Positions 56,163 to 61,787 of a stretch of DNA of 64,000 bases are shown one piece after another; positions within the stretch are counted from its first letter, which is position 1; every line of letters begins with the position of its first letter. The stretch is taken from contig JBNLVL010000004.1 in NCBI GenBank assembly GCA_050618075.1, positions 461,587 to 525,586 on the forward strand, given 5' to 3'. A program made the position numbers and the translations under genes. The notes under the pieces were generated by a model, which saw only the letters and a list, made by a program, of their open reading frames with translations, was not told the DNA's origin and ran no database searches. This stretch comes from Myxococcota bacterium. GTDB lineage: Bacteria > Myxococcota_A > UBA9160 > UBA4427.

Positions 56163-56771
56163 TCACGGCTCGTTCCGGCCGATCGCGCCGACGCCCGCCC
56201 CGGCGATCGCGCTCGCCGGGGCAGGCAGGTCGAACTTCGCCTTCAGGGTGAAGGTGTCCTTGCTGTCGCCGCGCATGTCCCACAAGAACCCGTCCTCCTT
56301 GCTCCGGAACTCCACCTGCAGCTTCACCTTGAGCTTCGTCCCGCTCTTGTCGATCGAGCCCTGGATCTTCAACGCCTTGATCTTCACCGGCTTGCCGTCG
56401 GGAATGGAGAGGATGCAGGACGAGACCCCGTCGTCGATCTCCTGGTTGAGGACGCTCTGGGACGGCCCGTCCAGCTCGACCTTCAGCGTGCGGTCCTTCT
56501 TGCCCTTCTGCTTCCAGGTGCCGCCCACGAAGTCGGCACCGACGTAGCCCGTCCAGGAGCCGTTCTCGAAGAACTGCATGCCGACCGCGCGCGCGGTCGG
56601 GCCGCACTTCTGTGTCGAGCTGCCGTCCTTGAACTTCATCTTCCAGGAGCCGGTGGCGTCGACCGAGACGCCGGCCAGGTCGACCTTGGCGGCCCGGGTG
56701 GCGCCGGCCCAGAGAAGCATCGGGACGAGAACCATCGGAAGCAGGAGACGTACGAGTCCGGTCGGCTTCAC
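56163..56771 (-). CDS. secreted Lys-rich hypothetical protein, paralogous to the central region of the upstream lectin-domain protein
   Basis: GTG 56771 lies 6 nt after AAGGAG. Signal peptide ...LLWAGATRA-AKV. GSWKMKFKDGS and GTWKQKGKKDRTLKVELD mirror GSWTQKMKTFWDG and GTFKRKGADGETIKLKID in the 56842..58488 product. Confidence 0.55.
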   Translation of the reverse strand: MKPTGLVRLLLPMVLVPMLLWAGATRAAKVDLAGVSVDATGSWKMKFKDGSSTQKCGPTARAVGMQFFENGSWTGYVGADFVGGTWKQKGKKDRTLKVELDGPSQSVLNQEIDDGVSSCILSIPDGKPVKIKALKIQGSIDKSGTKLKVKLQVEFRSKEDGFLWDMRGDSKDTFTLKAKFDLPAPASAIAGAGVGAIGRNEP

Positions 56772-56841
56772 GGCTTGCTCCTTGTTCGAGCGTGAGCGGC
56801 CTTGCCGGCCCGGCACCCCCGCTCTGCAGAAGAAACGGCGA

Positions 56842-59519: not shown

Positions 59520-60242
59520 ATGACTCGAGGGTGCCCGGTCCCGTCCGCACTGGATCGGGGAGAGAAGTGGGAAGAGAAGTGGGAAGAGGAGCGGGATCTC
59601 CTGGCCCAGCGATCCGCACTCGACGGGGACCTGCGACGGTCGCGGCCCGGGACCCCGGGCCTGCGCGTGGGCGCGGCGTGCCTCGTCCTGGGCATCTGGG
59701 CGTCCAGCGCCGCCCTGGCGGCGCCTCCGGTGGCCTCCGGACCCGGGGTCCGCGACCTGCGCGGCTGGGACTTCGCCGCGGACGGGCTCGCGAGCCTGGC
59801 CGGCGAGTGGGCGATCTGCTGGGATGCGCTGCTCACACCGGAACGGCCCGACTGCCCGGGCGCCTGGGAACCGGTCCCCGTCCCCGCGCTCTGGTCCGAT
59901 CCCGCGATCGCGGGCGCCCGGGACTCGGGCATGGGGTTCGCGACCTATCGCCTGCGCATCCTCCTCCCCGAGGACGCTCCGCCTCTCTCGCTCCGGAGCG
60001 GCGCGCCCTTCACCGCCTTCGCGCTCTGGATCGACGGCCGGCCCCACGGAGGCTCGGGCGAGGTGGGGCGCACACCCGAAGACTCCACCTCCCGGGCCCA
60101 CAACCGCGTCTTCGTGATCCCGGAGGCGGACTCCGCCGACTCGGAGCTGACGCTCGAGGTCCAGGTCTCGAACCACGAATTCCGGGGCGGCGGCCTGCGC
60201 CGCCAGTGGCTGCTGGGCACCCGGGACGCGGTTCGGAGCTGA
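59520..60242 (+). CDS. 7TMR-DISMED2-like extracellular sensor domain protein: N-terminal fragment of a split 7TMR-DISM cyclase
   Basis: In frame with the downstream cyclase ORF and separated from it only by TGA 60240-60242. Signal-like LRVGAACLVLGIWASSAALA. Domain text LRGWDF...LAGEWAICWDALL...GFATYRLRILLP...FALWIDG. The start (ATG 59520, or a later non-ATG codon) is uncertain. Confidence 0.6.
   Translation: MTRGCPVPSALDRGEKWEEKWEEERDLLAQRSALDGDLRRSRPGTPGLRVGAACLVLGIWASSAALAAPPVASGPGVRDLRGWDFAADGLASLAGEWAICWDALLTPERPDCPGAWEPVPVPALWSDPAIAGARDSGMGFATYRLRILLPEDAPPLSLRSGAPFTAFALWIDGRPHGGSGEVGRTPEDSTSRAHNRVFVIPEADSADSELTLEVQVSNHEFRGGGLRRQWLLGTRDAVRS
59562..59597. repeat. 12-nt tandem repeat GAGAAGTGGGAA x2 plus degenerate third copy GAGGAGCGGGAT
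   Basis: Read directly. If ATG 59520 is used, it encodes EKWEEKWEEERD. Confidence 0.85.
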
Positions 60243-61787
60243 GTGGTCCTGGAGACCCTCGCCTACGGAGCCTTCGGCGCGCTCTCGTTCGCGATCGGCC
60301 TGATCTACCTGACCCAGTTCGCCCTGCGTCCGGGCGATCGAGCTCGCGGCTACTTCGGGCTGGCGGCGCTCACCGTGGGCGTCCGGGTGGTGGCGGCGAG
60401 CCCGTCGGACGTGCAACAGCTGCTGTTTCCGGACATGTCGTTCACGACTCTGATCCGGATCGAGTACCTCACGACGTCGCTGATGATCATCGCCGGGGCC
60501 GGCTACTTCGCGGCGAAGCTCCGGGACGTGATTCCCGCGGTCGTCGCACGCGGCATCCAGACGGGCGGCCTCGCCACGGGACTCCTCACGCTGCTCGCGC
60601 CGTTCCCGGTGACCCTGGCGTCCCTACGGCCCATCGAGATCCTGGCGCTGGCCGTCGTGGTCTCGGGCCTCGTCGGCTACGCCGTCGCCGTCGGCCGGGG
60701 CCAGCGCTACGTGCGCTGGAACTTCGTGGCCATCTGCCTCTTCGCACTCGCCGTCGTCCACGACATCGTCCGAGTGGAGACGGGCCTGGGCGCCCCCCTC
60801 GAGCTGTTCTCGTTCTTCATGGCGCTGTGGCTCGTCTCCGAGGCCTGGACGATGTCCCGGTCGTTCATGAGCTCGATCACCTCCGTCGAGTCGCTTTCCA
60901 GGGACCTCATTGCCTCGAACGAAGAGCTCCGCGAGACCAATGCGGCCGTCACGCGCTTCGTGCCCTTCGAGTTCATCGAGCACCTCGACAAGCGGTCGAT
61001 CCGCGACGTGACCCTCGGCGACCACGTCGAGGCGGAGATGAACGTGATGTTCTGCGACATCCGGGCCTTCACGGGCCTGGTGGCCGACATGGACGCCAAG
61101 CAGGCCTTCGACTTCATCAACGGCTACCTGCGCCGGATGGAGCCGGTGATCCACGCCCACGGCGGCTTCGTCAACCAGTACCTGGGCGATTGCATCATGG
61201 CCCTCTTCCCCGAGAACGGCGACGCCGCGCTCGCGGCGGGAATCGAGATGTCGAGCGCGCTGCGGGACTTGAACCGCGAGCAGCGGGAAGACGACTCCCG
61301 GGCAAGGCCCATCGAGATCGGGATCGGAGTGAACGCGGGGCCGCTGATGCTCGGGACGATCGGCGGCACCCGGCGCCTGAGCGGCGGGGTCATCGGCGAC
61401 GCCGTCAACATCGCGTCGCGGGTCGAAGCCCTGGCCAAGGTCTACGGCACCCGTTTCATCGTGACCGACCGCAGCGTCGCCTCCCTCGTCGACCCGTCGC
61501 GCTTTGCGCTTCGCGAGCTCGACCGGGTCGTCGTGCGGGGGCGGCGCGACTCGATCTCGGTCTTCGAGGTGCTCGACGCACTCGACGAGCAGACCCGGGA
61601 GCTGCGGCTCTCGAATCTCGTCCGTTTCGCCGAAGCGCGCACCCTGCTCGGCGCCGGCGAGGACTCCCGGGCGCGAGAGGGCTTCGCGGCGTGCCTGGAG
61701 CGAGACCCCACGGACGGCGCCTCGGCCCTCTACCTCGATCGGCTCGCCCGCGGCGAGCGCGACCCGACCGTGCTCTCGGAGCCCTGA
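60243..61787 (+). CDS. 7TMR-DISM seven-transmembrane domain fused to a class III adenylate/guanylate cyclase
   Basis: 514 aa, GTG immediately after the upstream TGA. Seven hydrophobic helices, then the cyclase catalytic core (VMFCDIRAFTGL, NQYLGDCIMALF, IGIGVNAGPLMLGTIG, GDAVNIASRVE). Confidence 0.85.
   Translation: MVLETLAYGAFGALSFAIGLIYLTQFALRPGDRARGYFGLAALTVGVRVVAASPSDVQQLLFPDMSFTTLIRIEYLTTSLMIIAGAGYFAAKLRDVIPAVVARGIQTGGLATGLLTLLAPFPVTLASLRPIEILALAVVVSGLVGYAVAVGRGQRYVRWNFVAICLFALAVVHDIVRVETGLGAPLELFSFFMALWLVSEAWTMSRSFMSSITSVESLSRDLIASNEELRETNAAVTRFVPFEFIEHLDKRSIRDVTLGDHVEAEMNVMFCDIRAFTGLVADMDAKQAFDFINGYLRRMEPVIHAHGGFVNQYLGDCIMALFPENGDAALAAGIEMSSALRDLNREQREDDSRARPIEIGIGVNAGPLMLGTIGGTRRLSGGVIGDAVNIASRVEALAKVYGTRFIVTDRSVASLVDPSRFALRELDRVVVRGRRDSISVFEVLDALDEQTRELRLSNLVRFAEARTLLGAGEDSRAREGFAACLERDPTDGASALYLDRLARGERDPTVLSEP

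Follow-up and report, generated by a model that had tools for sequence, protein, structure and literature searches.

We propose that a 64-kb stretch of DNA from the metagenome-assembled genome (MAG) of an uncultured Myxococcota bacterium (contig JBNLVL010000004.1, positions 461,587 to 525,586; hereafter the window, G+C content ~70%) harbors a dedicated local cyclic-nucleotide switch. In this account, which we favor and regard as rather probable, a receptor-type class III cyclase and a divergently encoded CRP-type regulator (Crp) drive the neighboring operon for a secreted protein with an F-type lectin domain (the lectin protein) and a small secreted paralogue. The predicted link from Crp to the lectin operon is well supported by comparative evidence, and the link from the cyclase to Crp is supported by the conserved pairing of their genes. 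The design of the cassette is known from other bacteria, while the effector family is very rare. A sequence-only reading of the same DNA had presented sensor cyclase, Crp, two CRP boxes and a two-gene operon for secreted proteins as one self-contained signaling module, and all four units are in place, with the corresponding domain matches, signal peptides and boxes. The locus thereby offers a compact, testable input-output circuit from uncultured Myxococcota, comprising a regulator, two operators of fixed geometry and a target within 3 kb. It also opens a functional approach to 7TMR-DISM receptors that have a cyclase output and to a widespread clade of cyclases with non-canonical substrate residues.

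Two CRP boxes with conserved geometry precede the lectin operon

The evidence that carries this model is found in the ~175-bp gap between the crp stop codon and the ATG of the lectin gene. Two matches to the consensus TGTGA-N6-TCACA are located here, 38-95 nt past the crp stop: a distal box with perfect consensus (TGTGAAGCGGTTCACA, 58610-58625) and a proximal box with one mismatch (TGTGAACCGGTCCACA, 58569-58584; TGTGGACCGGTTCACA on the operon strand). They lie just downstream of crp, as claimed before, and no other site in the 64-kb window fits the consensus with at most one mismatch (expectation 0.54). Two or more such boxes appeared anywhere in the window in 10 of 100 shuffles, and at two mismatches the window shows no excess of boxes; a chance origin is excluded because both boxes sit in one gap and are conserved in orthologous loci. 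In every related locus fetched (~60 kb), boxes with at most one mismatch occur only upstream of the lectin gene. A search for autoregulation found no box before crp or the cyclase gene, even at two mismatches.

The geometry of this region is identical in five lineages (the window, L006, L001/L002, L003 and L013). The distance from box to box is 41 bp, and 21 bp separate the proximal box from a CAGRRT hexamer (CAGAAT, CAGAGT or CAGGGT), which is CAGAAT at 58542-58547 (minus strand) in the window. The lectin ATG lies 50-57 nt past the hexamer, behind a GGGAGA-type ribosome site. The distal box is conserved in L006, L001 and L003 and degenerate in L013. Locus L004 has a single box before its lectin gene, at the place equivalent to the distal box, and a copA-like gene after it. 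We predict that the hexamer is a -10 element, which would put the transcription start near 58535 and center the proximal and distal boxes at -41.5 and -82.5, respectively. Positions of this kind would fit a class II CRP promoter that is assisted by a second site further upstream.

The regulator is of the CRP type

The regulator (221 aa; 58664-59329, minus strand) is by sequence a CRP-type protein, not a CRP orthologue. It matches Pfam cNMP_binding (PF00027, 2e-22), the domain for cyclic nucleoside monophosphates (cNMPs), and the helix-turn-helix (HTH) family HTH_Crp_2 (PF13545, 5e-12). Its best PDB matches are Corynebacterium GlxR, Mycobacterium tuberculosis CRP and Thermus CRP (~1e-28), followed by E. 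coli CAP and Vfr (~1e-16). CRP is also the best NCBIfam model, with 83 bits compared to an equivalog cut-off of 266, which falls short of orthology to E. coli CRP.

Set against the CAP sequence, the cNMP pocket (FGELG...RSAS) keeps Gly71-Glu72 and Arg82-Ser83, the C-helix keeps the equivalent of Ser128 and has Leu or a gap at Thr127, and the recognition helix SRESINK keeps Arg180-Glu181 with Lys for Arg185. The Arg and Glu of the CAP recognition helix read TGTGA. SRESINK resembles the actinobacterial RETVNK as well. The pocket residues GELG/RSAS are invariant in five Crp orthologues, and so is the helix SVSRESIN in the orthologues of related loci. The sequence-only reading had described the divergent orientation relative to the cyclase gene, the pocket and the recognition helix in the same way, and the Cys cluster of FNR is indeed absent, as the protein has no N-terminal cysteines.

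A conserved CTAGCGTATCATG motif is present upstream of crp in L001 (2470-2500) and L006 and has diverged in the window (CTGGCCTATCCTT); it may represent the -10 region of crp.

The sensor cyclase is encoded in two pieces

The 514-aa product of 60243-61787 (plus strand) comprises a 7TMR-DISM seven-transmembrane (7TM) region, a signaling helix, a class III catalytic domain and a short TPR-like tail, with matches to Pfam 7TMR-DISM_7TM (PF07695, 9e-13) and Guanylate_cyc (7e-17). These assignments had been made correctly from the sequence, but the open reading frame (ORF) is only the C-terminal part of a gene that is split by a TGA codon, and its sensor domain had been missed. The same frame extends upstream (~59520-60239), giving an N-terminal piece (59520-60242, plus strand; the start at ATG 59520 is tentative) that encodes a signal/anchor segment and a periplasmic domain of ~165 aa and aligns over its full length with intact orthologues of 703-751 aa. 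In an independent Logan assembly of run SRR30568139, the sensor piece is called as a separate 240-aa gene. The NCBI annotation of the cyclase consists of the 514-aa piece alone, and this entry of the MAG hence covers only part of a gene that a nonsense codon interrupts.

The periplasmic domain, both in the window and in the intact orthologues, has no Pfam match at E ≤ 5 and no NCBIfam match, fits neither DISMED1 nor DISMED2, and shows no BLASTP similarity to a DISMED2-bearing relative. The earlier proposal of a carbohydrate-derived signal therefore finds no support. In the catalytic domain, the motifs FCDIRAFT, LGDCIMALF and GDAVNIASR align to the best PDB matches, the adenylate cyclases CyaB and bPAC, and both metal-binding Asp residues as well as the transition-state Asn and Arg are kept. 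The substrate-specifying pair is Gln/Gly, which is common to 48 of the 120 best cyclase matches (P0053-P0172), mostly 7TMR-DISM cyclases of ~700 aa. A more distant cyclase of this clade in another Myxococcota MAG (L016, 4563-9227) precedes the genes of a cNMP-binding protein and of a cNMP-binding Ser/Thr kinase. Argued from these neighbors, the clade probably makes a cyclic nucleotide that is read by CAP-type domains. Our literature search found no experimentally studied 7TMR-DISM cyclase, although the architecture is listed in databases.

Two arrays of tandem repeats occur in the spacer between crp and the cyclase gene: 9/18-nt units (GGTTTCGCA...) at 59433-59518 and a 12-nt unit repeated 3.3 times (GGGAAGAGAAGT) at 59557-59596. 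With ATG 59520 as the start of the cyclase, the 12-nt array would be translated as EKWEEKWEEE. The orthologous loci have neither array.

The cyclase-crp pair is the conserved core of the locus

The gene-neighborhood comparison that the sequence-only reading had called for was carried out, and the units co-localize in L006 and L003 and, without the small gene, in L001. Cyclase and crp are divergent neighbors in the window, L001/L002, L003, L006-L009, L013 and L015; by lineage, the divergent pairing extends over the window and six related lineages (L001, L003, L006, L012, L013 and L015). The order crp, boxes, lectin gene is kept in the window, L006, L001 and L003, and probably also in L013, where the contig ends just past the promoter. 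Locus L006 is fully syntenic with the window (ADH, cyclase, crp, lectin gene, small gene, metallophosphoesterase, cytochromes and MtrB/PioB), and L001 lacks the small gene and the metallophosphoesterase. In L003, a five-gene block of cyclase, crp, lectin gene, small gene and metallophosphoesterase is flanked by PilY1-type genes on one side and acyl-CoA metabolism on the other. Since the block is retained between unrelated flanks, L003 provides the best evidence that it is a unit. Taken together, the loci point to the cyclase-crp pair as the conserved core, with the lectin operon as a local target attached in a subset of lineages.

The lectin protein belongs to a very rare family

The lectin gene (56842-58488, minus strand) encodes a secreted protein of 548 aa, composed of a signal peptide, an F-type lectin domain (~aa 39-192), a beta-barrel middle domain (~200-390) and a C-terminal module (~395-548). 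The lectin domain, which had already been recognized as such, matches Pfam F5_F8_type_C_2 (3e-15) and also a NedA-like domain. All six PDB sequence matches are F-type lectins, fucolectins or lectinolysin-type modules (from 1.5e-20 for FBP32 to 7e-9), and a Foldseek search returns the same F-type lectin set. The fucose motif SHT...NRTDCCAER with its vicinal Cys-Cys is present, with a His-to-Arg spacing of 29 residues compared to ~26 in the eel lectin; the His of the motif is replaced by Ser in P0002 and P0003. Based on this motif, the domain is predicted to bind fucose.

The AlphaFold model of the whole protein is poor outside the middle domain (predicted local distance difference test, pLDDT, 59) and its fold matches recover the lectin domain only. 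The middle domain itself is modeled confidently (pLDDT 80-90) as long antiparallel strands and two helices. It is to exactly this domain, including its Cys pair, that the small secreted protein (56163-56771, minus strand; 190-202 aa depending on the start, with a signal peptide) is paralogous (hhalign probability 98.2%, E 4e-14). The model of the small protein (pLDDT 72) gives weak matches to eight-stranded barrels of the lipocalin/NHBA/TbpB type (TM 0.3-0.45), and the protein has no match in Pfam, NCBIfam, PHROGs, PADLOC or a PDB profile search. Homologues of the small gene adjoin lectin genes in L006, L003 and the contig of P0002.

The C-terminal module carries the signature Cys...QG.H.YP...GSD.Y.LI.DDF... 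and ends in an amphipathic helix, with a hydrophobic moment of 0.35-0.64 in six family members. Relatives of this module (window 56845-57300) also end the RCC1-repeat protein P0044 and P0047, which has an unassigned head. This portable module may be an anchoring or sorting domain. For the former idea of a membrane-active effector, the amphipathic helix is the sole support. Searches with the C-terminal 356 aa yield 10 matches among 1.84 billion representative proteins, with 4-5 genuine relatives of the family, complete or fragmentary, and none in 185,579 GTDB species genomes. With ~10 matches on this scale, the combination of lectin, barrel and C-terminal module deserves to be flagged as a protein family. 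The metagenome locus L011 was discarded as spurious, being an unrelated 201-aa ORF that shares only a short terminal FFQGWIE motif.

Signal peptides and conserved Cys pairs are found in both the lectin and the small proteins and fit an extracytoplasmic location. We infer that the lectin protein is Sec-exported, disulfide-bonded, glycan-binding and surface-associated through its tail, which is the least secure part of our account.

The lectin gene and the small gene overlap in L006 but are separated by 70 nt in the window, where a terminator-like hairpin (56837-56854, minus strand) spans the stop codon of the lectin gene, ahead of this gap. Expression of the small gene may therefore be attenuated in the window.

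A proposed local cyclic-nucleotide switch and its alternatives

According to our model, the receptor, with its periplasmic sensor, 7TMR-DISM membrane domain and class III cyclase, would make a 3',5'-cyclic nucleotide, most likely cAMP, which the divergently encoded Crp would bind in its intact CAP-type pocket. Crp would then occupy the pair of TGTGA-N6-TCACA sites that closely follows the crp gene. The pair is evident from the sequence and conserved, the occupancy is predicted. With a distance of 41 bp between them and 21 bp from the proximal site to the -10-like hexamer, the sites would support class II activation with a helper site. This activation would transcribe an operon for the lectin-barrel-tail protein, the small secreted barrel paralogue and, probably, a cytoplasmic metallophosphoesterase. 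As the likeliest output, the signal would cause an adhesin-like protein that binds glycans to be displayed or released at the cell envelope, which is the weakest step of the model.

Several observations weigh against such a switch, in its parts or as a whole. A sigma-70 consensus scan finds no promoter at the lectin operon, and the predicted -10 element is assigned from the conserved spacing of the hexamer. The C-terminal 356 aa of the effector match nothing in Pfam, NCBIfam, PHROGs, PADLOC or, by sequence, the PDB, and the role that we give to the effector is a guess. That the units behave as one module is supported by the pairing and gene order in relatives and by the L003 block. The module is not strictly self-contained: L015 has cyclase and crp without lectin gene or box, and in L005 a lectin homologue is located between glyoxalase and parC genes without crp or box. 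In addition, the synteny shared by the window, L006 and L001 reaches further, to ADH in one direction and to cytochromes and MtrB/PioB in the other, so that co-localization partly reflects common descent, and Crp may have many further targets beyond the scanned 64 kb. These last points bear on an unlikely alternative, in which Crp would act as a general regulator in this lineage with input from several cyclases. The lectin operon would then be only one target among others, and the neighboring cyclase would be linked to Crp by inherited gene order instead of a private signaling line. The absence of lectin gene and boxes around the cyclase-crp pair of L015, the extended synteny and the coverage of the box scan, 64 kb of the genome, agree with it. 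So does the higher conservation of Crp (72-84% identity among orthologues) compared to the lectin protein (43-58%) or the small protein (44-68%). Yet the divergent cyclase-crp pair persists with differing flanks in L003, L013 and L015, and no other box with at most one mismatch occurs in the 64 kb or in the ~60 kb of related loci. Very improbable is the interpretation of the palindromes as RNA hairpins (a terminator or attenuator of crp) or as chance matches. In favor of hairpins, both boxes are inverted repeats and lie 38-95 nt past the stop codon of crp, but they are not followed by a T-run and a terminator scan did not flag them. Across lineages, the half-sites are fixed and the central 6 nt, equivalent to a loop, vary without compensatory changes in the stems, which is the pattern of a protein-binding site and not of an RNA hairpin. 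A terminator would also leave the fixed 41-bp and 21-bp spacings unexplained. The chance that the locus is a Pycsar-like anti-phage system, i.e., a cyclase with a cNMP-activated effector, is practically negligible. PADLOC reports matches to PycC and cNMP domains, but these reflect generic similarity at the domain level, no better than that of Pfam. The cNMP-binding protein has a Crp HTH as its output, where a Pycsar system would have a TIR or membrane-disrupting effector. The cyclase, for its part, is a 7TM receptor, and cognate DNA sites are conserved; a Pycsar identity was therefore rejected.

Two further alternatives concern the cyclase, and here the evidence against an intact, cAMP-based switch is most direct. 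An in-frame TGA at 60240-60242 divides the cyclase between its sensor domain and its membrane domain, ahead of the first transmembrane segment, at a position where five orthologues (L006, L001, L013, L015 and L017) have TGG for a conserved Trp. TGA is an ordinary stop in seven of ten neighboring genes, and the Logan assembly, which agrees with the window at every one of 6,474 nt, has the same TGA. The circuit in this genome may hence be broken or rewired by the split. We consider it possible, though somewhat unlikely, that the circuit is defunct here, the nonsense mutation having killed the sensor cyclase and left the lectin operon silent or captured by other cyclases; the fact that all orthologues are intact at 703-751 aa fits such a recent loss. 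On the other hand, neither piece has decayed. The sensor piece shows no extra divergence (72-74% identity to orthologues that are themselves 68% identical to each other), which implies that the TGG-to-TGA change is recent, polymorphic, a read error or tolerated; a sequencing error or a minority allele may lie behind it. A GTG directly follows the TGA in the cyclase frame, so re-initiation could yield a sensor-less 7TM-cyclase, and TGA is the leakiest stop codon, with Trp as its near-cognate reading. The input arm thus appears either recently inactivated or working as two polypeptides or by read-through. General recoding of TGA as Trp was rejected, since TGA ends the seven neighboring genes at the positions expected from their homologues. 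Concerning the messenger, the substrate-specifying positions carry Gln in place of Lys and Gly in place of Asp/Thr. They thus depart from the adenine-specifying residues, and cAMP, which had been put forward as the messenger, is not established as the product. It is doubtful, nonetheless, that the messenger is cGMP or another cyclic nucleotide with Crp tuned to it instead of cAMP. This reading draws on the Gln/Gly pair, conserved across a large clade that accounts for 48 of the 120 best matches, on the Leu or gap that aligns with CAP Thr127, and on the Synechocystis guanylate cyclase Cya2, which has Glu/Gly at these positions. Conversely, M. tuberculosis Rv0386 acts mainly as an adenylate cyclase despite its Gln/Asn pair, the closest structural relatives CyaB and bPAC are adenylate cyclases, and the regulator keeps the Ser128 equivalent and the GE/RS pocket. 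The example of Clr, a Crp-like protein that is activated by cAMP and cGMP alike (PMC10127613), also speaks for a messenger other than cAMP. It is quite unlikely that all of the following apply at once: that the Gln/Gly cyclases are a large clade with a non-cAMP product, that Crp is the dedicated receptor of this product, and that the lectin protein founds a new class of secreted effectors that are targeted by a lectin and bind membranes. If this were true, the C-terminal module would be reused behind RCC1 repeats and other heads, and such effectors might let Myxococcota attach to or attack fucosylated surfaces.

Comparison with known systems

The logic of a local cyclic-nucleotide switch is not as unprecedented as the sequence-only reading suggested. 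The Sinorhizobium meliloti cyaD1 locus clusters the receptor cyclase CyaD1, the Crp-like Clr, the Clr-box target smc02178, whose function in S. meliloti is unknown, and the metallophosphoesterase SpdA (PMC4222275). With the receptor cyclases CyaD1, CyaD2 and CyaK, the S. meliloti system answers an external signal (PMC4222275, PMC5498481, PMC10127613). Clr binds its own box only with 3',5'-cAMP, and SpdA shows an unexpected preference for 2',3'-cNMPs (PMC4222275); cGMP activates Clr as well (PMC10127613). Both loci therefore bring together a receptor class III cyclase, a Crp-like activator, a box-bearing target and a metallophosphoesterase, but the analogy is one of layout and the components are not orthologous. 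The sensor is CHASE2 in S. meliloti, whereas 7TMR-DISM is combined here with a periplasmic domain without family match, and the cyclase of the window differs from that of S. meliloti by its Gln/Gly substrate residues. Clr belongs to Crp cluster G and reads a different box from a single class I site (-61.5), while the regulator described here is CAP/GlxR-like, with tandem TGTGA-N6-TCACA sites at the predicted positions -41.5 and -82.5. SpdA is Rv0805-like and the metallophosphoesterase of the window YfcE/SapH-like. The targets, smc02178 on the one hand and the F-type lectin protein with its paralogue on the other hand, are unrelated.

The regulator resembles E. coli CAP and the actinobacterial CRP/GlxR proteins in its two-domain fold, GE/RS pocket, Arg-Glu recognition helix (SRESINK compared to SRETVGR and RETVNK) and sites, and the predicted site position is typical of class II activation, as in CAP-type systems. 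It is only 29% identical to E. coli CAP, with Leu or a gap at the Thr127 equivalent and Lys for Arg185, and, within the scanned DNA, it appears to be wired to a neighboring operon instead of a catabolic regulon. The receptor follows the plan of the 7TMR-DISM class of Anantharaman and Aravind (e.g., RgsP), in which a PF07695 7TM region follows an extracytoplasmic domain and precedes a cytoplasmic output. Unlike members with c-di-GMP or histidine-kinase outputs, it ends in a class III cyclase and contains neither DISMED1 nor DISMED2. Finally, the lectin protein shares the His/Arg/Arg fucose triad and the vicinal Cys-Cys with fish fucolectins and with F-type lectin fusions such as lectinolysin and the Streptococcus pneumoniae SpX/GH98 modules, and in both cases a secreted bacterial protein would be targeted by way of its lectin domain. 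The partner domains of the lectin protein are a lipocalin/TbpB-like barrel and a module of ~150 aa that ends in an amphipathic tail. They show no relation to the cholesterol-dependent cytolysin or glycosidase domains of the known fusions and are almost unique in sequence databases.

Neighboring genes

Downstream of the small gene, a cytoplasmic metallophosphoesterase of the YfcE/SapH type is encoded at 55243-56040 (minus strand) and closes the conserved block. It matches Pfam Metallophos_2 (1e-20) and PDB entry 3qfm (5e-15), and NCBIfam YfcE below the cut-off. L006 and L003 have the gene in the same place and orientation, and L001 lacks it. An identity as CpdA-type cAMP phosphodiesterase was rejected, as the nearest relatives are YfcE/SapH and not CpdA/Rv0805-like proteins; a role in nucleotide turnover as a nucleotide phosphodiesterase is possible. 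In L013, a metallo-beta-lactamase-fold protein with a match to Pfam Anti-Pycsar_Apyc1 (7222-8298) is encoded 4 kb from the orthologous cyclase and represents a candidate cyclic-nucleotide phosphodiesterase. An Rfam scan of positions 54000-64000 of the window returned no match.

Beside the module, a porin-cytochrome cluster (50035-53763) encodes an MtrB/PioB-type outer-membrane protein, a multihaem cytochrome and a cytochrome c. The cluster suggests extracellular electron transfer and is syntenic in L001 and L006, without an evident link to the Crp boxes. The metallophosphoesterase gene and the cytochrome genes are separated by a thiolase-like gene (PRK08257-type acetyl-CoA acetyltransferase, 53787-55253), which L001 has as well and L006 lacks at this place; the edge of the block is thereby marked as a point of rearrangement.

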